A program made the position numbers and the translations under genes. The notes below the pieces were generated by a model that did not search any database, was not told the DNA's origin, and saw only the letters and a program-made list of their open reading frames with translations. Of a DNA stretch of 50,312 nt, positions 5,043 through 48,370 are shown one piece after another. How positions within the stretch are numbered: position 1 is the stretch's first letter; each line of letters begins with the position of its first letter. Where the stretch lies: the NCBI GenBank assembly GCA_035696765.1, contig DASSEB010000456.1:1-50312 (forward strand). Reading direction: 5' to 3'. The stretch comes from Pyrinomonadaceae bacterium. GTDB lineage: Bacteria; Acidobacteriota; Blastocatellia; Pyrinomonadales; Pyrinomonadaceae.

Positions 5043-5771
5043 ATGACGGACAATCAAACGCGCCGCATGTTTGCGTCGCTGCTCTTTTCGCGACTCGCGC
5101 TCGCGATTCTTCTCGGCGGATGTAATCAGGCGAGTGTGGTCGAACAAACATCTGTGAAGCCAATGACGACACGACCTATGGTTTATGTTGCTCTCGGAGA
5201 CTCAACCGGATCAGGTGTCGGCGCGAGAGAAGGTGGGTACGTGGTCCGCCTTTTTAACCGGCTCGTCAAACGCTTGCCTGAGACGCGGTTGACTAATCTT
5301 TGTGTGAGTGGCGCGACGACCGCCGACGTCGTTCGTGGTCAGTTGCAACGAGGCGTCGCGCTCAATCCCGACCTCGTTACATTGGGTGTGGGCATTAACG
5401 ACATCGGTCATGGACTGACGCTGGAGCAGTTTTCAAAAAACTACGAAGAGATTCTCAGCACGCTGCGTGAGAAGACGCGAGCTCAGATCGTCGTCGCGAA
5501 CATTCCCGACGTCTCGGGTGCGCCACGGATTCCAAACGCGTTGCGCAAGCAGTATCAACAGGAAATCATGCGGTTCAGTCAAAGGCTGGAACAGGTCGCA
5601 GGGCGTCACGGCGTGACGGTGTTTGATATCTACTCGATCACGCACGAGCAGCTTGCGTCGCATCCTGAGTATTTTTCCGCCGACGGGTTTCATCCGTCCG
5701 ATGAGGGGTATGAGTTATGGGCGACGCAGATGTGGCCGACAATGGCGAGGGTGGTTGGAGTTGCGGAGTAA
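5043..5771 (+). CDS. SGNH/GDSL-family hydrolase (lipase/esterase), probable lipoprotein
   Basis: Block I ALGDSTGSG (GDS nucleophile), block V DGFHPSDEGY (DxxH). Lipobox-like LLGGC. ATG at 5043 preferred over TTG at 5031. Confidence 0.8.
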   Translation: MTDNQTRRMFASLLFSRLALAILLGGCNQASVVEQTSVKPMTTRPMVYVALGDSTGSGVGAREGGYVVRLFNRLVKRLPETRLTNLCVSGATTADVVRGQLQRGVALNPDLVTLGVGINDIGHGLTLEQFSKNYEEILSTLREKTRAQIVVANIPDVSGAPRIPNALRKQYQQEIMRFSQRLEQVAGRHGVTVFDIYSITHEQLASHPEYFSADGFHPSDEGYELWATQMWPTMARVVGVAE

Positions 5772-6848
5772 CTAACGCCGAACATCTGCGGCTTCTCCTG
5801 AGATCGGATCGAAGAAATGCGCGTTGTCGGTTGCAAGTTTGAGCCAGACTTTGCTCTCCAACTCAGCTCGGAAATCCGCGGGCGCGCGTGCGATCAATCT
5901 GTGCGGGCCAACTGAAAGAAACACAAACGTTTCGTTCCCCATCAACTCAGTCACATAAACACTCGCCGGGATTGCGCCATCGCGCGGCTCAGTCAATACC
6001 TGCACGTGTTCCGGCCTGATGCCCATCGTCCATCGCGATTGCCGCGACAGTTCGTTTAACTGATCGACGTTCAGCGGAACGCGCAGCGAATCACTCACAA
6101 ACGTCTCCGCCTCGACCGCGCCTTCGATGAAATTCATACTCGGACTCCCGACAAACTCAGCCACAAAACGATTAGCCGGATGGTTGTAAATGTTCATCGG
6201 CGTGTCGAACTGTTGCAGCCGCCCTTTCCTCATCACTGCGACGCGCGAGGCGAGCGTCATCGCTTCAGCCTGATCGTGCGTTACGTAGATCGTCGTGGTC
6301 CCGAGTTGATGTTGGAGACGCTTCAGTTCGCCGCGCATCTGCACGCGCAAACGCGCGTCGAGATTCGAGAGCGGCTCATCCATCAGGTACGCGCGCGGCT
6401 CGCGCACGATTGCACGCGCGAGCGCGACGCGCTGCCGTTCGCCGCCGGATAACTCTCGCGGTTTGCGTTCGAGCAGTGATTCGATCTCCAGGAGGGCCGC
6501 CACGCGATTCACGCGTTCAGCTCGCTCGGCTTTTTGAAGTTTTCTGACGCGCAGCGGATAACCGATGTTCTCCGCAATCGTCATGTGCGGATAGAGCGCA
6601 TAACTCTGAAACACCATTGCGAGATCGCGGTGCTGTGTCGGCACGTCGTTGATTCGTTCGCCGTCGATGTAGATCTCGCCGGAAGTGACCGTTTCAAGAC
6701 CGGCGAGCATGCGTAACGTCGTCGTCTTGCCGCAACCTGATGGTCCAAGCAGCACGATAAACTCGCCGTCGTCGAGCTCGAGCGACAAGTCGTCGACCAC
6801 GCGCGTCGCGCCAAACGTCTTACTCACATTCTGGAACTTGATTCCCAT
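5772..6848 (-). CDS. Sugar ABC transporter ATP-binding protein (MalK/UgpC-like)
   Basis: Walker A GPSGCGKTT, signature LSGGERQRVALARA, Walker B YLMDEPLSNLD, plus a C-terminal regulatory domain. Confidence 0.9.
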   Translation of the reverse strand: MGIKFQNVSKTFGATRVVDDLSLELDDGEFIVLLGPSGCGKTTTLRMLAGLETVTSGEIYIDGERINDVPTQHRDLAMVFQSYALYPHMTIAENIGYPLRVRKLQKAERAERVNRVAALLEIESLLERKPRELSGGERQRVALARAIVREPRAYLMDEPLSNLDARLRVQMRGELKRLQHQLGTTTIYVTHDQAEAMTLASRVAVMRKGRLQQFDTPMNIYNHPANRFVAEFVGSPSMNFIEGAVEAETFVSDSLRVPLNVDQLNELSRQSRWTMGIRPEHVQVLTEPRDGAIPASVYVTELMGNETFVFLSVGPHRLIARAPADFRAELESKVWLKLATDNAHFFDPISGEAADVRR

Positions 6849-10925: not shown

Positions 10926-10970
10926 GCCACGGATTTACACGGATTAATACACCGATTGATCTTCCGATTG
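10926..10970. repeat. Family-B repeat, one arm only (GCCACGGATTTACACGGATTAATACACCGATTGATCTTCCGATTG)
   Basis: Tandem 9-10 nt units of ACGGATT/CCGATT. Overlaps the last codons of the minus-strand gene ending at 10944. Confidence 0.6.
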
Positions 10971-11405
10971 GCGCTTCGCAAGGAAAAACGAGATCACCGT
11001 CGAGTAGATCAATCCGAAGAGCAGGGCGCCGAGAAACAATCCAATGAATGCTTGCGCTGCCACGCGTGACGTCGGTGTGCCTTCTATTCCCGGCTCGCTC
11101 GCCAACCACTTCGTTCCAATCACGGCCAGCACGCCAGCGAAGAACAAGGCGGCGCTGAGTGCGTAGACGAACGAGATTGCAACACCCGTCTTCACTCCTT
11201 GTTTGAACGGGGCCCTCTCACCTTTCTCGCGTTCCAGCTCCTTCAGTCCGAGATAGATCATTACGAACTCAAGGATATTGAAGACGATTGGGCTGCCAAG
11301 TGTATGGACCAGTGACTGCGGATTGGAAACCGTCGAACGGGCAACGAGCACCCAAATCATCACTCCGAGCGTGATCAGCAGTCCATATTTAACTGGAATT
11401 TTCAT
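10944..11405 (-). CDS. Small integral membrane protein, DUF4199-like
   Basis: Four predicted TM helices. The N-terminus MKIPVKYGLLITLGVMIWVLV resembles DUF4199 proteins. ATG at 11405 preferred over TTG at 11414. Confidence 0.5.
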   Translation of the reverse strand: MKIPVKYGLLITLGVMIWVLVARSTVSNPQSLVHTLGSPIVFNILEFVMIYLGLKELEREKGERAPFKQGVKTGVAISFVYALSAALFFAGVLAVIGTKWLASEPGIEGTPTSRVAAQAFIGLFLGALLFGLIYSTVISFFLAKRQSEDQSVY

Positions 11406-11407
11406 TT

Positions 11408-11435
11408 GCCACAAAGAAGCACAAAACGCACAAAT
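11408..11435. repeat. Family-A repeat, solitary arm (GCCACAAAGAAGCACAAAACGCACAAAT)
   Basis: Three decamer units of GCACAAA. No inverted partner nearby. Confidence 0.6.
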
Positions 11436-11466: not shown

Positions 11467-13878
11467 TCATTCCCAGGCGGGTTTGATGCCGCCGTGCGCG
11501 TCCTGCCAGTAAGGCGCCCACGCAAGTGTGAGTAATTTGACAGCGATGTTTGCTTTCGTTGGCTTCAAACTCACTTTCCCGAGTTCTTCAGTTTGCGGGT
11601 CGAAAGCACCTTCGAGCGCCGCCGTTTCGGCTTTGAATTCAGTATCGAGGTCCGCCAGCTTTTGTTCGATCGCGGCGACGTTCTCTTCGGCGCGGTCCAC
11701 GTCGTCAGCTTCTTTCATCGAGCGACCCGCGCCACGCACCGCCGTAGTTGCTCGTCCCAGCGTCGACATGCTCACTCGCTTTCGACCCATGAACGACGAG
11801 AGCAACGTAGCGCCAAACGAGATCGCCGTCTGTAGCTTTTGACCTTTTGCCTGTTCCTTCTCGCGCTCGACTGCCTGCTCGGCGCGACGCTTCCTGTCCT
11901 CGAGCTGCTCAATCTTCGGCGCGTACTTCCGCCGCAAATTCTCCACCGCCTCGTCGCGCTTTTCTCTCGCGAGCTGTTGCAGGCGAACTCGGAAATCGCG
12001 TTCTGACTCACCCGGATTCGAAGCGATCTCCAGTGTTGGACTCTCGAGCAACTCGAGTCGCTGGTTGCGATAGATCCAATTCGCGAAATCTTTGTTCCAC
12101 GTCGCATACGCCTTAGGCTTCGTCGCCGTCGTGGGAACTTCAACAAACGACGCACCTGCCTCCGGTTGCGCTTCGAGATCCTCGGCGGGTAGTTCCAACG
12201 CCGTCGCCGAGCTCCAGTCGAGGCTGACTGGTCCATCTGTAATTGGCGCAAGCAACGCCAACTGCTGAGTCGTATCGGTTGACTTTGAATTGCTGTAACG
12301 AACATCCGCGACGCCGAGCAGCATTGGATGATAAGAGAGCTTTGCATTCGCCTCGCCGGATGAGCGAACGGGAATGAAATACTGAGTGATTTCAGGCGGC
12401 AGCACCGGCCTATCGCTTTGGGCGCGTGTGCTTGAAATCGTCTCCGCGACAGGCGCAGGCGCCGCGGCGGATGTCACACCCTCTTTTAACGGATCCATCA
12501 GCAACTTGATCTGCGCGCGTGTCAACGGCCCACGCAGATACGACATGGCCCAACGTGTCTCAAACACTTCAGGCGCATCGTCGTGCACGTTGTTCATGAG
12601 AAAGATCCGGTTGTTCAGTCCCGCGAGCAGTTGTTCCATCTGCTGCCTGTCAAACTTCTGCCCGGTGCCGGACGCAATACCTTCGAGGCCTTCCAGCACC
12701 CGCGCCTTATCGCGTTCAGTCTGCAAGCGACCGATGAACCACGTGCCGGTGTTTGCGAGTCCTTTGTAATCCAGGTCAACAGGATTCTGCGTTGCCAACA
12801 CGACACCCAATCCAAATGCCCGCGCTTGTTTCAGAAGCGTCAACAGCGGCAACTTCGACGGCGGATTCGCAACCGGCGGGAAGTAACCAAAGATCTCGTC
12901 CATGTAGAGAATGGCGCGCAGGCTCGACGTGCCGGATTGAGTCCTCATCCAACCGAGCACCTGATTGAGCAATAGCGACACGAAAAACATGCGCTCCGAA
13001 TCGGCGAGATGCGCGATCGAAAAGATGGCGAGGCGCGGCTTTCCTTTGTCTGTGTAAAGGAGCTTTTGAATGTCGAGTGGCTCGCCTTCCATCCAGCTCG
13101 CGAAACTCGGCGACGCGAGCAGGTGGTTCAGCGCCATTGCGAGTTCAAAGCGATCGCTGGCCGGGAAGAATGAATCGAGATCCATCACGCCGACCTTCGT
13201 GATCGCCGGCGACTGGATCTTTTGGATGAGCCCGCCGAGATCGAGATCTCTGCCGGTGGACCACTCCTGATTGAGAATGTTGGAAAGCAGAATGTGTTCG
13301 CGGCTGCGAATCGGATCCGCGTCGATGCCGATTAGTCCGAGCAAGCTCGTAACAGTCGTGTTAATGCGCTCGGCGAGTGATTCGTTGTCCTGCCTGATCG
13401 TTTCCGGTGGAGCGGCGAACGATTTGAGAATAGACACCGGCAAGCCGGCGTTGCTGCCGGGTGTGTAGATGCGAAAGTCCGCAGCGTCGCGTAAACGCTT
13501 GATGCGTTCACCGTCCTGTCCCCACTTCGCCAGACCTTCTTTCCAGAGTTTCGCCTGTTGCGCTGCATCAACACCTTCCTCCACCCACGGCGCGAAGTCT
13601 TGCGGCGAAAGGTTCGGAAAGGTCAGAAGCAGGTTACACAGATCACCTTTCGGATCGATGATGATTGCCGGTATGCCGTCGATCGCAGCTTCTTCGAGTA
13701 GCGTGATGCACAGACCGGTCTTGCCACTGCCGGTCATGCCAACGCACACGGCATGCGTGACAAGATCTTTGGAATCGTAGAGGAGGAGGTTGTTATCGGA
13801 TTTTGCTCGACCGAGGTAGAAGACGCCCAGCTTCTCAAACTGCTGGACGGCAGGACTTGCCACATTTTCAGGATTCAT
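11467..13878 (-). CDS. HerA/FtsK-superfamily P-loop NTPase, YjgR (DUF853)-like, with long C-terminal coiled-coil extension
   Basis: Walker A GMTGSGKTG, DPKGDL, Walker B ILYMDEIF and ATQNPVDLDY are arranged in parallel to E. coli YjgR motifs (GATGTGKT, DVKGDL, FFDEAH, SQNPSD). The C-terminal ~200 aa are Glu/Lys/Arg-rich heptad-like. The ATG overlaps the upstream stop (ATGA). Confidence 0.75.
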   Translation of the reverse strand: MNPENVASPAVQQFEKLGVFYLGRAKSDNNLLLYDSKDLVTHAVCVGMTGSGKTGLCITLLEEAAIDGIPAIIIDPKGDLCNLLLTFPNLSPQDFAPWVEEGVDAAQQAKLWKEGLAKWGQDGERIKRLRDAADFRIYTPGSNAGLPVSILKSFAAPPETIRQDNESLAERINTTVTSLLGLIGIDADPIRSREHILLSNILNQEWSTGRDLDLGGLIQKIQSPAITKVGVMDLDSFFPASDRFELAMALNHLLASPSFASWMEGEPLDIQKLLYTDKGKPRLAIFSIAHLADSERMFFVSLLLNQVLGWMRTQSGTSSLRAILYMDEIFGYFPPVANPPSKLPLLTLLKQARAFGLGVVLATQNPVDLDYKGLANTGTWFIGRLQTERDKARVLEGLEGIASGTGQKFDRQQMEQLLAGLNNRIFLMNNVHDDAPEVFETRWAMSYLRGPLTRAQIKLLMDPLKEGVTSAAAPAPVAETISSTRAQSDRPVLPPEITQYFIPVRSSGEANAKLSYHPMLLGVADVRYSNSKSTDTTQQLALLAPITDGPVSLDWSSATALELPAEDLEAQPEAGASFVEVPTTATKPKAYATWNKDFANWIYRNQRLELLESPTLEIASNPGESERDFRVRLQQLAREKRDEAVENLRRKYAPKIEQLEDRKRRAEQAVEREKEQAKGQKLQTAISFGATLLSSFMGRKRVSMSTLGRATTAVRGAGRSMKEADDVDRAEENVAAIEQKLADLDTEFKAETAALEGAFDPQTEELGKVSLKPTKANIAVKLLTLAWAPYWQDAHGGIKPAWE

Positions 13879-15680
13879 TGTCGTGTGTCACCAAACAACG
13901 TGAATTTTTGCACTGCAAACAGCCGCCACTCGCCGCAGCCGGATAAGTTGTGAAGACCGCGATCGTCAAGACTGATTCCTGATCCGGCCACGAGATCTTT
14001 CACAGTGCTCGATACGAGCACTTCGCCGGGCTCTGCCTCATGGGCCACACATCCACACATCCGTACAGCGTCGCCTCCGACTCTCCCATCGACGATCTCG
14101 CACTCGCCGGTGTGCAATCCGGCGCTTATCGTCACACCGAGGCGCGATGCGTATTGCGTGATGGTGGACGCACAGCGTATCGCACGCGCCGGCCCGTCAA
14201 AGATCGCCAGCAGGCGATTTCCGGCCAGGTCGATCTCACGCCCGCGGTACCACTCGATCTCCTTGGCGATGTACGCCTGCAGGCGGCGCAGCAATTCGAG
14301 ATGTTGCCCGGCATCGGCGATCTCGGCGACCAACACAGTCGCGAGCACTGTATCAGGCTCGACGCGGTGACGCACTCCCGTCAAAAACTCCTCCACCTCG
14401 TCGAGAATCGCATCCTGATCGCCGACGAAGGGAAGGTGGTCGTTCCCGGGCAACGCCACAAACTTCGCGCCCGGGATTCGTTCCGCCACAAACCGGCCTT
14501 CCTCGACTTTCAAACACTGATCGTCCGTGCGATGAATCACGAGTGAAGGCACGCGGATCGACGGCAAGACGTTTCGCACATCGATCGCGGCGTTCATCTG
14601 TGTCAACGCCACGGCGGCGCCGGGACTCGCTCCCATTCGCAGATACGTGGCCCACCACTCGCGGAAGTTTGGATCGTCCGCGCGACTCGGCGCGCGTTCG
14701 TCGATGCCGATCGGTCCACCCCAATGCTTGCGCATGACGTCGAAAAACTGTTCGCGCTGTTCTGCTGTTGGTCCCCACGGATAATCCGCGTCGCGAATGC
14801 GTTTGGCGTACGTGCCGATCATGACGAGCGCCAACGTCTTCTCCGGATACGTGGCCGCAAAGAGACTGCACATCGGACCACCTTCGGAGACTCCGCACAG
14901 CGCCGCACGTTCGGAACCGACCGCGTCCATCACTGCGCGCACGTCATCCATTCGTTGTTCGAGCGTCGGCAGTTGATTGATGGGAACGCGATCGGAAAGT
15001 CCTGTTCCGCGTTTGTCGAAGAGGATGAGACGTGAAAAGGACGCGAGTCGTAACAGGAAGCGCGCGAAGTTCGGTTCACGCCAGAAGTACTCGAGGTGCG
15101 ACACCCAACCCATCACAAACACGAGGTCGAGCGGTGCGTCGCCAATGACCTGGTAAGCGATGTTCACATCGCCGCTGCGCGCATACATTGTTTCCGGAAT
15201 CCGCGGCAGTGGCGCCTCCGGTTGGACGTCGATCACAGCCGGGCCGGTTGTTTTGATTTCGCGCGCGTCGTCTTCGTCATCGATGTGTTCGACGCCAATC
15301 CTCGCCCTCGTCCCTTCGCGGACAATGACAGTTTCTTCCTCGCCGGCGGTCGTGTGCACGTCCGTAAGGAAACGATAGCCCCGCTTGGGCACCGTCTGAA
15401 TGTACTGCTCGCCCTCCTTACCTTCGCCGAGTGCTTTTCGGAGTATCGAGATGTTTTGCGCGAGGTTGTTCTCCTCGACAAAACTGTCGGGCCAAACTTG
15501 CTGCATCAATTCTTTCTTTGTGAGGACGTGGCCGGAGTTTTCGAGGAGCACCAGCAGGGTGTCGAACACCTTCGGAGTCAGCGGTATTTCGCGATCTTCT
15601 TTGAAAAGAAGGCGCTCCTGCGCGTCCACGCGAAACCCATCGAATAGATAAAAGCGCCTGCCCGGCCGGTTCGTCATCAT
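13875..15680 (-). CDS. Three-domain fusion: OmpR/CadC-type winged-helix DNA-binding domain + alpha/beta hydrolase + class-III nucleotidyl-cyclase-homology domain (apparently degenerate)
   Basis: N-terminus LTPKVFDTLLVLLEN...VPKRGYRF (trans_reg_C). Hydrolase elbow GVSEGG with late GNDHLPF His. C-terminus TVLVAEIADAG...AGNRLLAIFDGP...AGLHTGE...GDAVRMCG...PGEVLVSS follows the cyclase-homology pattern, but the metal-binding Asp are replaced by E and N, and the transition-state Asn by R. Confidence 0.75.
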   Translation of the reverse strand: MMTNRPGRRFYLFDGFRVDAQERLLFKEDREIPLTPKVFDTLLVLLENSGHVLTKKELMQQVWPDSFVEENNLAQNISILRKALGEGKEGEQYIQTVPKRGYRFLTDVHTTAGEEETVIVREGTRARIGVEHIDDEDDAREIKTTGPAVIDVQPEAPLPRIPETMYARSGDVNIAYQVIGDAPLDLVFVMGWVSHLEYFWREPNFARFLLRLASFSRLILFDKRGTGLSDRVPINQLPTLEQRMDDVRAVMDAVGSERAALCGVSEGGPMCSLFAATYPEKTLALVMIGTYAKRIRDADYPWGPTAEQREQFFDVMRKHWGGPIGIDERAPSRADDPNFREWWATYLRMGASPGAAVALTQMNAAIDVRNVLPSIRVPSLVIHRTDDQCLKVEEGRFVAERIPGAKFVALPGNDHLPFVGDQDAILDEVEEFLTGVRHRVEPDTVLATVLVAEIADAGQHLELLRRLQAYIAKEIEWYRGREIDLAGNRLLAIFDGPARAIRCASTITQYASRLGVTISAGLHTGECEIVDGRVGGDAVRMCGCVAHEAEPGEVLVSSTVKDLVAGSGISLDDRGLHNLSGCGEWRLFAVQKFTLFGDTRQ

Positions 15681-15813
15681 CTTTCAGAAATTTTTGAGAA
15701 CTATCTCACGATCAATTCATAGCTTCCTAAATACGAGACGAGGCGTCCGCCCCTATTTTCTCAACACTCACGCGCCCGACATCGTTGACCCAGATTATTT
15801 AGGAGGAGTCGCA

Positions 15814-17268
15814 ATGAATACAAGAGCGAAGCGCCAGGTCAAGCCTGACGGACAGCATGCCGTGGTGCTTGGCGGAAGTCTTGCGGGGCTGTTGGCGGCG
15901 CGAGTGCTGGCCGATCATTTTGACCGCGTGACCTTGATCGAGCGCGATGCTTACCCGCAATCGTCGCAAGCTCGCCGCGGCGTCCCGCAGGCGAACCACG
16001 TGCACGGGTTGTTATTGCGCGGACGGCAGATTCTCGAAGACTTCTTTCCCGGACTGCAAGACGAGATGATTGCGGCTGGAGCGCCGGTCGTCGACATGGC
16101 GAAGGAGATCGCGTGGTTCACTCCGGCTGGTTGGGGCGTCCGGTTCCCATCCGATTTGCAGATACTTGCCTTCACTCGGCCGATGCTCGACCTGTACGTG
16201 CGGCGACACCTCGCGCGCAATCCGAAAGTCGAGATTGTGGATGACACTGATGTTTTACGTCTGCTTCGCGGCCCTTTGCCGAATCAACTCGAGGGTGTTC
16301 TCGTGTGCCCGCGAAATTCAGAAATTTATCGCCGCGTCGCTAAAGAGTTGCGTGCCGATCTGGTTGTCGATGCCACTGGCCGTGCGTCGCGCGCGCCGCG
16401 CTGGCTCAGCGATCTCGGTTACTCGACGCCTGAAGAGACGGTGATCGATGCGTTCCTCGGATACGCGAGCAGGCTGTACCAGATTCCCGATAATTTCGAA
16501 CGCGACTGGAAATGCGTGTTTGTGCAGAGCGCTCCGCCGGAACAAAGGCGCGGCGCGATCTTGTTCGAGGTTGAAGACAACCGCTGGTTAGTAACTCTTG
16601 TCGGCGGCGGCCGGGACTATCCGCCAAGTGATGAGGCCGGGTTTCTCGAGTTCGCTCGCAGCCTGGCGGTCCCAACCGTCTATGACGCGATTCGACATGC
16701 GCAACCACTCTCGCCGATCAAAACGCACCGCGCGACAGAGAATCGACGACGCCGGTACGATCGCGCGAAAGAGCTGCCGGAAAACTTTCTCGTGCTCGGC
16801 GATGCGGTTTGTGCTTTCAATCCAGTTTACGGGCAAGGCATGACCGTCGCCGCCCTCGGCGCACTGGCTTTGCACAAGACTTTAGCCGAACAGCGGCGAC
16901 GTTATGCGGATGGAAGTTTAGTGGGGCTGGCTCGACGCTTCCAGAACCGGCTGGCGAAGGTCAACGAAACTCCGTGGATGCTGACCACTGCTCAAGATCT
17001 TCGGTATCGTGAAACTGTCGGCGGCTCTCCCGGTCGCATGACCAGGTTTATGCACCGTTACATGGATCGGGTAGTCGAACTCGCGACGCGAAAGGTAGCG
17101 GTGCGCAGAGTTTTGTTGCGAACCTTCAACATGTTGACGGCGCCGTCGACGCTTTTCCAGCCGCGGGTGCTGTTTCAAGTGTTGGCCCAGGTGCTTAAAC
17201 CTGCTCGGCAGCAAAGAGTGCGTCACTCGCGGACACAAGCCGCGCACGTGACTGAGGCGATGTCGTGA
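15814..17268 (+). CDS. FAD-dependent oxidoreductase / monooxygenase-like
   Basis: Dinucleotide-binding motif VVLGGSLAGLLAARVLA...VTLIERD, later GDAVCAFNPVYGQG (FAD ribityl motif). ATG at 15814 is preceded by AGGAGG (15801..15806). Confidence 0.75.
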   Translation: MNTRAKRQVKPDGQHAVVLGGSLAGLLAARVLADHFDRVTLIERDAYPQSSQARRGVPQANHVHGLLLRGRQILEDFFPGLQDEMIAAGAPVVDMAKEIAWFTPAGWGVRFPSDLQILAFTRPMLDLYVRRHLARNPKVEIVDDTDVLRLLRGPLPNQLEGVLVCPRNSEIYRRVAKELRADLVVDATGRASRAPRWLSDLGYSTPEETVIDAFLGYASRLYQIPDNFERDWKCVFVQSAPPEQRRGAILFEVEDNRWLVTLVGGGRDYPPSDEAGFLEFARSLAVPTVYDAIRHAQPLSPIKTHRATENRRRRYDRAKELPENFLVLGDAVCAFNPVYGQGMTVAALGALALHKTLAEQRRRYADGSLVGLARRFQNRLAKVNETPWMLTTAQDLRYRETVGGSPGRMTRFMHRYMDRVVELATRKVAVRRVLLRTFNMLTAPSTLFQPRVLFQVLAQVLKPARQQRVRHSRTQAAHVTEAMS

Positions 17269-17281
17269 AGAAACGGACTTC

Positions 17282-17350
17282 GCCACAAAAAAGCACAAAA
17301 GGCACAAAATCAAGAACAGCGGTTTTGTGCTTTTTGTGCTTTTTTGTGGC
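17282..17350. repeat. Family-A palindromic repeat, full copy; probable bidirectional terminator between convergent genes
   Basis: GCCACAAAAAAGCACAAAAGGCACAAAA (17282..17309), 13-nt loop, TTTTGTGCTTTTTGTGCTTTTTTGTGGC (17323..17350). 28-nt arms with a single G:U-type mismatch. Confidence 0.85.
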
Positions 17351-17358
17351 TGAAATAC

Positions 17359-18753
17359 TCACTCAGTATCGCTCTTATTTTTCGCGCTCTCCCCGATCCA
17401 AACCGTCTTGATGTTCACGAACTCGCGGATCCCAAACTCCGCGAGTTCGCGGCCATACCCGGAATGCTTCACGCCGCCAAACGGCAGCCGCGGATCCGAC
17501 GCGACCATCCCGTTGATGAACACCGCTCCGGCTTCAAGCTCTTCGATGAACTTAGTTTGTTCGTGCGCGTCGTTGGTCCACGCTGAGGAACCGAGCCCAA
17601 ACGGCGTCGCATTCGCGATCCGGATTGCTTCGTCAATATCACGAACGCGAAAGAGCATCGCAACCGGCCCGAAGATCTCTTCGCACGACACTGGCTCGTT
17701 AACATCAACATCGACCAGCACCGTCGGCTCGAAAAAGTTACCGGGCCGGTTCAGTCTCTTCCCACCGGTTAAGACACGCGCGCCAGTGGCGGTTGCTTTT
17801 TTCACCTGCTCTTCGAGATCGTTCACGATCTGCGGAGTCGCGAGTGGTCCAATCTCCGTCGACTCTTCCATCGGATCGCCGATGGGGAGTGCCTGCATCT
17901 GGCTTACGAACTTGCGCTCAAACTCGTCGTAGATCTCGCTTGCAACGATAAAGCGTTTGGCGGCGATGCACGATTGTCCGTTGTTGAGGGTGCGTGCTTT
18001 GACCGCAGTCGTCACCGCCTCGTCGAGATTGGCCGAAGGCATGACGATGAACGGATCACTGCCGCCGAGCTCCAGAACCGTCTTCTTGATCTGCTTTCCG
18101 GCGATCGAAGCGACACTGCTGCCGGCGGGTTCACTTCCGGTCAACGTTGCAGCGACGACGCGCGGATCGTTCAGGATCTTCTCGACCGCTTCCGAGCCAA
18201 TCAACAGAGCTTGAAACGCGCCTTTTGGAAATCCGGCGCGCGTGAAGATCTCTTCGATCGCCAGTGCGCACTGCGGCACATTCGAAGCGTGTTTGAGCAG
18301 TCCAACGTTGCCGGCCATCAAAGCCGGTGCGGCAAAACGAAAGACCTGCCAGAACGGGAAGTTCCAGGGCATTACGGCGAGCACCGGACCAAGCGGCTGG
18401 AAACGCACGTAGCTCTTCTTCGCATTTGTTTCCACGACCTGATCGGCCAGATGACGTTCGGCATTTTCAGCGTAGTAGCGACAGACCCAGGCGCATTTTT
18501 CCGCTTCGCTGACAGCGGCTTTAATCGGCTTGCCCATTTCCGTCGACATCAGCTTGCCGAGCTCATGTTTGTCGCTTTCAAGGATCTCCGCCGCACGCTG
18601 CATCATGCGCGAGCGATCGGCGAACGGCGTGTGACGATAGTCGCGAAACGTGTCTGCTGCGAGTTGAAGTTTCTCTTCGATCTGCGTTGCTGATAAGGCC
18701 GGGAAAGTTTTTAGAGTTTCACCCGTAGCCGGATTGATTGATGCTATTGCCAT
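17359..18753 (-). CDS. NAD(P)-dependent succinate-semialdehyde / aldehyde dehydrogenase (Sad/YneI-like)
   Basis: ALDH motifs LELGGSDPFIV and NNGQSCIAAKRF (catalytic Cys). End-to-end resemblance to E. coli YneI, including INPATGE, MPWNFPFWQV and FGGVKHSGYGRE. Confidence 0.9.
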   Translation of the reverse strand: MAIASINPATGETLKTFPALSATQIEEKLQLAADTFRDYRHTPFADRSRMMQRAAEILESDKHELGKLMSTEMGKPIKAAVSEAEKCAWVCRYYAENAERHLADQVVETNAKKSYVRFQPLGPVLAVMPWNFPFWQVFRFAAPALMAGNVGLLKHASNVPQCALAIEEIFTRAGFPKGAFQALLIGSEAVEKILNDPRVVAATLTGSEPAGSSVASIAGKQIKKTVLELGGSDPFIVMPSANLDEAVTTAVKARTLNNGQSCIAAKRFIVASEIYDEFERKFVSQMQALPIGDPMEESTEIGPLATPQIVNDLEEQVKKATATGARVLTGGKRLNRPGNFFEPTVLVDVDVNEPVSCEEIFGPVAMLFRVRDIDEAIRIANATPFGLGSSAWTNDAHEQTKFIEELEAGAVFINGMVASDPRLPFGGVKHSGYGRELAEFGIREFVNIKTVWIGESAKNKSDTE

Positions 18754-24029: not shown

Positions 24030-24098
24030 GCCACAAAGAGGCACAAGAAGCACAAAATGATTGGTCCAGGTTTTGTGCTTTTTGTGCTTTATTGTGGC
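24030..24098. repeat. Family-A palindromic repeat, full copy
   Basis: GCCACAAAGAGGCACAAGAAGCACAAAA (24030..24057), 13-nt loop, TTTTGTGCTTTTTGTGCTTTATTGTGGC (24071..24098). Confidence 0.85.
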
Positions 24099-29062: not shown

Positions 29063-29150
29063 GCCACAAAGAGGCACAAAAAGGACTCGCCACAAAAAGG
29101 CACAAAAAGGCACAAACAATTCATTTGTGTTTTTTGTGCCTTTTGGTGGC
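29063..29150. repeat. Family-A repeat: extra half copy plus full hairpin
   Basis: GCCACAAAGAGGCACAAAAAGG (29063..), then GCCACAAAAAGGCACAAAAAGGCACAAA (29089..29116), loop, TTTGTGTTTTTTGTGCCTTTTGGTGGC (29124..29150). Confidence 0.85.
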
Positions 29151-32384: not shown

Positions 32385-32548
32385 CCACAAAGCCGCAAAG
32401 AAAGAATTAGCCACAAAAAGGCACAAAAGGCACAAAAACAGATTAAGCCTTAAAAACAAAAGAGACATTACGAATTGCCTTGAGGCGTGGTCTACTCGGT
32501 TGATTTTGTGCTTTTTGTGCCTTTTTGTGGCTAGAGCTTTTTTGTGGC
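32384..32548. repeat. Composite family-A repeat (nested arms with 65-nt central spacer)
   Basis: Arms GCCACAAAG... (32384) and GCCACAAAAAGGCACAAAAGGCACAAAAA (32410..32438) face TTTTGTGCTTTTTGTGCCTTTTTGTGGC (32504..32531) and TTTTTTGTGGC (32538..32548). Both flanking genes use TAG inside TAGCCACAAA. Confidence 0.85.
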
Positions 32549-46931: not shown

Positions 46932-47807
46932 ATGATGACAAACATACTCAAATACTCTCGCGCGCTCTTCGCAATCATGGCGCTTGTAGTTGCTGTCGCC
47001 GCAAACGCAACGGCGTTCGACGGAGAATCTCAATACGCCAAGCTGGACGGAGCGCGCGTTCATTACAAGAGTTACGGAAAGGGTAAGGACGCGCTGGTTC
47101 TGGTCCATGGCTGGACCTGCAATCTCGAGAATTGGCGCGAGCAGATCCCGGAGTTTTCCAAACGGAACAGAGTGATAGCGCTGGACCTGCCGGGTCACGG
47201 GTTGAGTGACAAGCCGCAAGTCTCGTACACGATGGACCTGTTCGCGAATGCGATCGACGCCGTGATGCGCGATGCGAAAGTCGAGCGCGCAGTGGTGGTG
47301 GGCCATAGCATGGGAACGCCAGTGGCGCGACAGTTCTATCGCAAGTACCCGCAGAAGACGCTCGGAATCGTTATCGTGGACGGCGGCTTGCGGCCCTTCG
47401 GCACAAAAGAAATGCGCGAACAGTTTCTGTCGATGTTTCGTGGGCCACAGTACAAGGAGGCGGGCGCGCAGATGTTTGCTCAGATGATGGGCAAGCTGCC
47501 TGCTGCCGACCAGCAACTGATCTCGGCGTCGTTTGCAAACACTCCGCAGCACGTACTGGTCAGCGCGATGGAGAATATGAGCCAGGAGTCGCTCTATACT
47601 CCGGACAAAATAAATGTGCCGGTGTTGGCGTTACTTGCCAAGTCACCGTTTTGGCAGCCCGACACTGAAGAGTTCTTGCACAGCCTTGCTCCCGACCTGG
47701 AGCTCCAGTGGTTCGAAGGGGTGGGCCACTTCATCATGATGGAGAAGCCGAAGGAGTTCAATGAGGCGGTGCTGGCGTTTCTCAACAAAAAAGCTCTCTT
47801 GAAATAA
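46932..47807 (+). CDS. Secreted alpha/beta-fold hydrolase
   Basis: Signal peptide. Oxyanion LVHGW, nucleophile elbow GHSMG, C-terminal catalytic His in GVGHFIMMEKP. Confidence 0.8.
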   Translation: MMTNILKYSRALFAIMALVVAVAANATAFDGESQYAKLDGARVHYKSYGKGKDALVLVHGWTCNLENWREQIPEFSKRNRVIALDLPGHGLSDKPQVSYTMDLFANAIDAVMRDAKVERAVVVGHSMGTPVARQFYRKYPQKTLGIVIVDGGLRPFGTKEMREQFLSMFRGPQYKEAGAQMFAQMMGKLPAADQQLISASFANTPQHVLVSAMENMSQESLYTPDKINVPVLALLAKSPFWQPDTEEFLHSLAPDLELQWFEGVGHFIMMEKPKEFNEAVLAFLNKKALLK

Positions 47808-48294: not shown

Positions 48295-48370
48295 CCACAA
48301 AGAGCATAGCTACAAAAAGGCACAGAAAGCACAAAAAATGATTTTGTGCTTTTTTGTGCCTTATTGTGGC
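48294..48370. repeat. Family-A palindromic repeat, full copy
   Basis: GCCACAAAGAGCATAGCTACAAAAAGGCACAGAAAGCACAAAAAA, short loop, TTTTGTGCTTTTTTGTGCCTTATTGTGGC (48342..48370). Starts on the G of the TAG stop at 48292..48294. Confidence 0.85.

Follow-up and report, generated by a model that had tools for sequence, protein, structure and literature searches.

Overlapping genes for a winged-helix/hydrolase/cyclase-homology protein and a HerA-superfamily ATPase in a Pyrinomonadaceae genome: probable deletion-made neighbors, not a conserved defense module

In the anti-phage systems Sir2-HerA and DUF4297-HerA, a HerA-like hexamer is paired with a toxic effector (a Sir2 NADase and a DUF4297/Cap4-like nuclease, respectively), and it is the HAS barrel of HerA that docks the effector. 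MADS defense takes the form of an eight-gene operon, mad1-mad8 (10.1101/2023.03.30.534895). In LipJ (Rv1900c) of M. tuberculosis, an alpha/beta hydrolase is followed by a class-III cyclase-homology domain (CHD), while RsbQ, D14 and KAI2 are single-domain hydrolases that signal via partner proteins. The locus considered here is a pair of overlapping minus-strand genes in a stretch of 50,312 nucleotides (below, "the window" means the whole of it; contig DASSEB010000456.1, assembly GCA_035696765.1) from the chromosome of a soil Pyrinomonadaceae bacterium (Acidobacteriota). Gene 1 combines a winged helix-turn-helix (wHTH) domain, an alpha/beta hydrolase and a CHD, and gene 2 encodes a P-loop ATPase of the FtsK-HerA superfamily. 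An earlier note on this DNA had proposed that the two form a HerA-plus-effector module. The reading preferred here, with a probability of roughly 0.78, is that they are functionally independent, vertically conserved genes made adjacent by a deletion, and not a conserved defense module.

The two open reading frames (ORFs) and their ATGA overlap were re-found at exactly the coordinates given in the earlier note, and the overlap supports the tight coupling of the ORFs claimed there. On the minus strand the junction reads ...CGACAATGAATCC..., with the ATGA at 13875-13878 shared between the gene-1 stop codon (TGA, 13877-13875) and the gene-2 start codon (ATG, 13878-13876). This overlap is the recent product of a deletion of ~800 bp that removed a GNAT acetyltransferase gene, since such a gene separates gene 1 and the ATPase gene in close relatives. 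Among the homologous loci compared with the window (coded L001, L002 and so on), L085 marks the limits of the event: in a blastn alignment, homology ends at window position 13905 and restarts at 13848, leaving 56 bp where relatives have ~856 bp holding the GNAT gene. The order gene 1, GNAT, ATPase is found in L003, L085, L004, L005 and several metagenomic loci, with GNAT intact in L085 and L003, and is ancestral within the sub-lineage. L086, whose ATPase is 90% identical, preserves an intermediate in the loss that gave the overlap of the window: its positions 5612-6004 hold a GNAT remnant that has lost residues 58-235, so that 1-57 run straight into 236-277, and that still overlaps both neighboring genes. 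In L084 (ATPase 95% identical), as in the window, there is no GNAT gene and the overlap is 4 nt; the gene-1 C-terminal tail FTLFGDTRQ occurs only in these two. In L001, which shares the backbone and whose ATPase is 87% identical, GNAT and ATPase are present, with both gene 1 and the neighboring epoxidase gene absent. Loss of GNAT made the two genes overlap, and they are therefore probably co-transcribed in the window; this co-transcription reflects local operon history and not a two-protein machine.

The surroundings are those of a conserved housekeeping backbone, syntenic among relatives: PolX, aldehyde dehydrogenase, (epoxidase, gene 1), (GNAT), ATPase, a DUF4199 membrane protein, a zinc alcohol dehydrogenase and a sugar ABC transporter, with parentheses around the variable members. 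GC content is flat across the two-gene region (0.56-0.62), and its base composition gives no sign of a foreign island. The DUF4199 gene lies directly 3' of the ATPase gene in all close Pyrinomonadaceae loci, which is not so in other phyla.

Co-occurrence of the two genes was surveyed from both sides. When 83 fetched ATPase loci were searched by tblastn with each gene-1 domain, matches came only from L002-L005, all close Pyrinomonadaceae; gene 1 was found at none of the 71 ATPase loci outside this close clade, of which 59 extend upstream for 2 kb or more. From the other side, 80 metagenomic gene-1 loci were fetched and the informative ones binned by identity: the ATPase gene lies downstream of gene 1 in 11 of 12 loci at ≥74% identity, in one of 11 at 62-73% and in none of 13 below 62%. 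Adjacency is confined to one Pyrinomonadaceae sub-lineage. The ATPase gene has no conserved partner elsewhere either: when its neighbors within four genes on each side were clustered, the largest cluster drew on only 6 of 76 loci, and among 138 immediate neighbors the commonest Pfam family (generic methyltransferases) accounted for five, with no recurrent family and no defense-island signal against PADLOC. The proposed HerA-plus-effector module does not survive this comparison, as the two families do not co-occur beyond one sub-lineage, an outcome that the earlier note had itself named as telling against it. In the gene-neighborhood survey, a check also suggested there, the ATPase stood alone across phyla and in no defense island.

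Table 1. Features of the two-gene region and its flanks (positions in the window; residues are those of the encoded protein)
Feature	Position	Strand	Basis or remark
Gene 1	13875..15680	-	601 aa ORF; databases start at second Met, 600 aa
OmpR/CadC-type winged-helix domain, residues 30-104	15369..15593	-	Pfam Trans_reg_C and PDB matches
Alpha/beta-hydrolase domain, residues ~166-437	14370..15185	-	Pfam Abhydrolase_1; intact Ser265-Asp387-His415
Class-III CHD, residues 443-590	13911..14354	-	Aligned to Rv1900c 1ybt
Deletion scar including ATGA overlap	13849..13904	-	blastn junction mapping vs L085, L086, L003
Gene 2	11467..13878	-	803 aa ORF
ATPase core with inserted helical domain, residues ~19-470	12469..13824	-	AlphaFold2 model, Foldseek
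C-terminal module, beta-rich with helical hairpin, residues 487-803	11470..12420	-	Fragment model, pLDDT 91.3
Helical hairpin, residues 626-697 and 705-758 (133 residues)	11605-12003	-	Inserted in beta-rich domain
Divergent promoter region, 133 bp	15681..15813	.	Alignment of 13 orthologous regions
Lsd18/LasC/MonCI-family flavin-dependent epoxidase, 484 aa from ATG at 15814	15814..17268	+	PDB, Pfam
DUF4199 membrane-protein gene	10944-11414	-	Directly downstream of ATPase gene
REP-like repeat copy downstream of ATPase gene	11405..11434	.	Partner hairpin 17279-17350

The three-domain reading of gene 1 in the earlier note is borne out by Pfam, NCBIfam and alignment to the solved LipJ/Rv1900c cyclase domain (1ybt), which agree. 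The wHTH domain matches Pfam Trans_reg_C (PF00486) over profile positions 2-77 of 77, scoring 71.4 bits where the cutoff is 26.2, and its PDB matches include CadC (5ju7, 4e-13) and ToxR (7nmb, 1e-10). Pfam Abhydrolase_1 covers residues 186-419 at 58 bits. The hydrolase was taken in the earlier note to be intact (GVSEGG elbow, late histidine), and this holds across the family. Two homologue sets were used: 121 orthologues, all at least 80% identical and from Pyrinomonadaceae wherever named (more than 120 clusters at ≥80% identity are found in this family), and a wider set of 55-62 soil-metagenome sequences at 55-81% overall identity. Neither the elbow (S265) nor the DHLPF histidine varies among the orthologues, and the Ser265/Asp387/His415 triad is invariant in these and in 62 wider homologues. 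Conservation among the orthologues is highest in the hydrolase (0.94), followed by the wHTH domain (0.84) and the CHD (0.72). With its Ser-Asp-His triad intact, the hydrolase domain looks active. A second alpha/beta-hydrolase gene lies elsewhere in the window (~47025-47441, plus strand), 32% identical to the gene-1 hydrolase over 155 residues.

Residues 158-589 of gene 1 match the NCBIfam model for the bifunctional lipase/adenylate cyclase LipJ (NF058673) at 358 bits (E 7e-107), across profile positions 4-448 of 449; the equivalog cutoff is 800 bits. Judged by this profile, gene 1 would be a LipJ-like relative and not a LipJ equivalog. Because the match runs end to end, the fusion of hydrolase and cyclase domains is a known architecture, that of LipJ/Rv1900c, which had gone unrecognized in the earlier note; the wHTH domain is the addition to it. 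Alignment of residues 443-590 to 1ybt (E 5e-21) confirms the cyclase substitutions that had been read by eye: FTDIVG is replaced by VAEIAD, with the metal-binding Asp becoming Glu453; AGD by AGN, the second metal-binding Asp becoming Asn488; and GVAVHIGAR by GDAVRMCGC, the catalytic Arg becoming Cys544. R540 occupies the position of the transition-state Asn, which is His in Rv1900c. Among the 121 orthologues, R/E/Q and N occupy the metal-Asp positions, and Cys invariably stands in place of the catalytic Arg; across the gene-1 family the first position is R/K/Q, the second D/N/G and the Arg position C/Q/K. Pfam Guanylate_cyc has no match to gene 1 at E ≤ 0.1. The CHD is a long-standing pseudo-cyclase whose catalytic loss is old, because the catalytic set is never all intact in the 121 orthologues and 55 homologues at 55-81% identity. 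The pseudo-cyclase call made for the window's protein can be extended in this way to the family as a whole, in which an intact catalytic set was not found.

A likelier partner for gene 1 than the ATPase is the divergently transcribed gene on its other side. The product of this gene has full-length homology to the Lsd18/LasC and MonCI epoxidases (8up4 at 2e-78 over residues 14-456, MonCI at 4e-74) and a Pfam FAD_binding_3 match. It lies upstream of gene 1 in 11 of 12 loci at ≥74% identity, accompanies gene 1 in two loci (L102 and L103, 68%) that have no ATPase gene, and covaries with gene 1 in presence and absence, both being missing in L001. The region between the two genes contains invariant palindromic blocks, AAATACG-N16-CGTATTT and TGAGA-N4-TCTCA, with variable spacers, in 13 orthologous regions. 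Just before the gene-1 ATG is a direct repeat with 11-nt spacing, TTCTCAAAAA / TTCTGAAAG, conserved in 13 orthologous loci. The blocks look operator-like rather than like RNA structure, since their arms are invariant, their spacers variable and covariation absent; RNA structure in this region was set aside for want of covariation. Together with the direct repeat they are candidate operators. Two relatives carry an extra palindromic, MITE-like insertion between gene 1 and the epoxidase gene, of ~180 bp in L084 (3942-4255) and ~90 bp in L096 (5776-5997); the window has neither.

These features suggest that gene 1 may encode a one-component transcription regulator. Its hydrolase domain matches the receptors RsbQ, D14 and KAI2 (E 1e-11 to 1e-9), and might, as in those proteins, bind or hydrolyze a small molecule of ester or lactone type. 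The catalytically dead CHD, an obligate-dimer fold, would join two wHTH domains, and the resulting dimer would act through these on the palindromes of the 133-bp promoter shared with the epoxidase gene.

Gene 2 has intact Walker A (GMTGSGKTG, residues 47-55, Lys at 53) and Walker B (YMDE, 325-328) motifs, and GMTGSGKT and YMDE are invariant in a family alignment (A1, also used as a profile). Pfam matches are weak and restricted to the P-loop region (DUF87, with 28.9 bits where the cutoff is 23.2; HerA_C; TrwB). For structure comparison, the protein was modeled with AlphaFold2 from 30 diverse homologues (pLDDT 86.5, pTM 0.80). Foldseek matches this model to archaeal and bacterial HerA (among the HerA matches 9x1m, 4d2i and 7wrx), to the HerA subunits of Sir2-HerA (8wld) and DUF4297-HerA and to DndH-C (7es4), with E-values of 1e-13 to 1e-9 at 12-16% identity. 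The superfamily assignment in the earlier note is upheld by the Walker motifs and the fold; its narrower placement with YjgR/DUF853 is not, as only the P-loop matches. That identity was rejected on two comparisons: PF05872 covers 43 of 502 positions (residues 41-83), and A1 aligns to YjgR (11kk) at E 0.0034, again in the P-loop only. Gene 2 also lacks a HAS barrel, since only two short strands precede the ATPase core in the model and residues 33-63 align to 152-183 of the Sir2-associated HerA 8wiv, leaving ~120 N-terminal HerA residues without a counterpart.

What had been described as a coiled-coil tail of ~200 aa is, in the model, a helical hairpin of 133 residues inserted in a beta-rich C-terminal domain. 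The tip of the hairpin (~residues 685-712) is modeled with low pLDDT and is conserved, hydrophobic and basic; it could contact membrane or nucleic acid. The C-terminal module as a whole is conserved across the family in A1. It has no Foldseek match in the PDB at E ≤ 0.001, the best (0.037) coming from generic coiled coils, of which p85 iSH2 and IpaB are examples, and a Pfam scan at E ≤ 10 gave no significant family.

The gene-2 family is large: clustered at 50% identity, it has 8112 representatives at E ≤ 1e-3, 5745 at E ≤ 1e-10 and 2445 at E ≤ 1e-30, and its best-scoring members are mostly ~750-860 aa long and aligned over nearly their full length. Among GTDB species representatives there are at least 569 ATPase loci, at 52-81% identity, in many phyla, including Acidobacteriota, Nitrospirota, Gemmatimonadota, Chloroflexota, Planctomycetota, Verrucomicrobiota, Myxococcota and Proteobacteria; the reach of the family over many phyla is at 52-69% identity. 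A copy with 59% identity on a contig assigned to a Methanomassiliicoccaceae archaeon (L033, JACXTO010000086.1, from a metagenome-assembled genome) points to a transfer between domains or else to faulty binning. In tblastn searches, 72,556 plasmids gave a single weak ATPase match (26% identity) and 50,697 phages gave none. No description of the family turned up in the literature, of which the 2004 FtsK-HerA survey by Iyer et al. was not covered. Its role looks housekeeping-like rather than defensive. The fold suggests, with low confidence, that the protein may be a hexameric ring translocase with DNA as its most likely substrate. A tentative proposal is that gene 2 represents a large, phylum-spanning HerA-superfamily lineage that may perform an undescribed housekeeping translocase function, for example in a process linked to DNA or the membrane in environmental bacteria that grow slowly.

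The flanking repeats pointed out in the earlier note do exist; they do not bound a module, and belong to a genome-wide REP-like element present at many unrelated intergenic sites. This element, GCCACAAARAAGCACAAAA, matches the window 16 times, where 0.01 matches would be expected, at no fewer than eight intergenic sites, and its copies are often inverted pairs that form hairpins; further examples lie at 24030-24098, 29063-29150, 32410-32531 and 48309-48370. In one sequencing run (X25), read depth rises ~30-fold at 17193-17400, a spike attributed to the multicopy nature of the element. Apparent joints in the mapping of short contigs were dismissed as cross-matches between its copies.

Several observations weigh against the independence of gene 1 and gene 2. 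At ≥74% identity they are adjacent in nearly every informative locus (11/12), and in the loci inspected they overlap or are closely spaced. Short contigs cross their junction; these are of low depth, from runs whose RNA or DNA nature is only guessed, and are compatible with co-transcription without proving it. Scans for consensus promoters and terminators gave nothing above shuffled sequences. Nor does the epoxidase gene always accompany gene 1: the pairing is missing from L089 and L112, and at 62-73% identity just 2 of 14 loci have it. A lineage-specific regulatory link, such as autoregulation by gene 1 of an operon including the ATPase gene, is conceivable. Put most explicitly, gene 1, (GNAT), ATPase and DUF4199 would form a lineage-restricted operon in which gene 1 controls ATPase transcription in response to a small-molecule cue, the relationship being regulatory, with no complex. 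This would fit the adjacency, the 4-nt overlaps or short gaps at every junction examined, the junction-spanning contigs from possibly-RNA runs and the absence of a terminator-like site between the genes. It is harder to reconcile with L001, where GNAT and ATPase persist without gene 1; with the lack of any such regulator by the ATPase gene in other phyla or in other Pyrinomonadaceae (L006, L071); with the location elsewhere of gene-1 homologues below 74% identity; and with the conserved palindromes, which face the divergent epoxidase gene. Such an operon is on balance unlikely. Recruitment of the wHTH-hydrolase-pseudo-cyclase protein as a sensor or regulator of the ATPase within the sub-lineage is, as a novel reading, much less likely than the undescribed translocase function proposed above for gene 2.

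Two further explanations, both very improbable, would give the protein products more striking roles. One is that the pair is a new anti-phage system, a HerA-like hexamer with a DNA-binding hydrolase/pseudo-cyclase as its effector, on the pattern of Sir2-HerA or DUF4297-HerA. The overlap of the ORFs and the resemblance of the gene-2 fold to the HerA subunits of those systems (E ~1e-12, 12-16% identity) are in its favor, as are weak PADLOC matches of the ATPase to mad8 (6.5e-12) and to HerA models (1e-9); these matches are, however, at superfamily level, and the other seven MADS genes are all absent. The ATPase lacks the HAS barrel, the N-domain of HerA proper, and a GNAT gene ancestrally stood between it and gene 1. 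Neither the unconserved co-occurrence of the genes nor their syntenic, housekeeping context, with no defense island, is that of a defense system; with identities of 80% or higher over more than 100 clusters, both look like core genes and not like fast-evolving defense genes, and the ATPase family is missing from phages and all but missing from plasmids. The other, no more credible, is that the gene-1 protein is active both as a lipase and as an adenylate cyclase, an orthologue of mycobacterial LipJ making cAMP. The very significant NF058673 match over most of the protein and the homology of the CHD to 1ybt could be read in this way, but the score is far under the equivalog cutoff, Pfam Guanylate_cyc is not matched, both metal-binding aspartates and the catalytic arginine are replaced in gene 1 and family-wide, and LipJ has no counterpart of the N-terminal wHTH domain.

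Three more specific candidates were also set aside. Membership of MADS was rejected, the mad8 match being superfamily-level and the neighbors being DUF4199, alcohol dehydrogenase, ABC transporter, epoxidase and aldehyde dehydrogenase genes. A toxic effector of the Sir2 NADase or DUF4297/Cap4-like nuclease type is not to be found in gene 1, which contains only wHTH, hydrolase and CHD; its sole PADLOC match is to a generic TAP-like hydrolase model (7.6e-5). Association with a mobile element was discarded on the single weak plasmid match, the absence of phage matches and the genome-wide distribution of the flanking repeats.

With the pair read as two core genes juxtaposed by a deletion, a false lead is removed: the overlap of a HerA-like ATPase with a multidomain enzyme, defense-like at first sight, is a product of that deletion. 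Both proteins belong to large families that are catalogued but uncharacterized. One comprises wHTH-hydrolase regulators, possibly tied to an Lsd18/MonCI-like epoxidase, in which a long-dead cyclase fold would have been kept for dimerization. The other, a very large and highly conserved family of stand-alone HerA-superfamily ATPases whose C-terminal module is structurally unmatched, is the most interesting residue of the analysis.

Comparison with known systems sets both proteins somewhat apart. Gene 2 shares with HerA (in HerA-NurA, Sir2-HerA and DUF4297-HerA) and with DndH-C (TM-score 0.69, normalized to the target) a RecA-like ASCE core with an inserted helical domain. It differs from the HerA systems in having neither a HAS barrel nor a partner nuclease or NADase gene and in standing alone across phyla, and from HerA and DndH-C in adding a ~320-residue C-terminal module of beta structure and hairpin without a structural relative. 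YjgR/DUF853 (PF05872, 11kk) is likewise a HerA-clade ATPase with its P-loop near the N-terminus, but gene 2 differs from it in length and C-terminal architecture, and nothing beyond the P-loop aligns. On the other side of gene 1, the divergent neighbor resembles the polyether epoxidases Lsd18/LasC and MonCI over its full length, but no polyketide synthase (PKS) or epoxide-hydrolase genes are among the genes listed near it. Gene 1 follows LipJ/Rv1900c (1ybt, 1ybu) from end to end in its hydrolase and class-III CHD; it adds an N-terminal OmpR-type wHTH domain and linker, and it has lost the metal Asp pair and catalytic Arg that Rv1900c keeps. With RsbQ, D14 and KAI2 it shares a hydrolase domain with a Ser-Asp-His triad, but where those proteins depend on partners for their signaling, gene 1 carries a wHTH output in the same chain; by analogy, the fusion of a hydrolase to an output domain suggests that a ligand may be sensed by hydrolysis.

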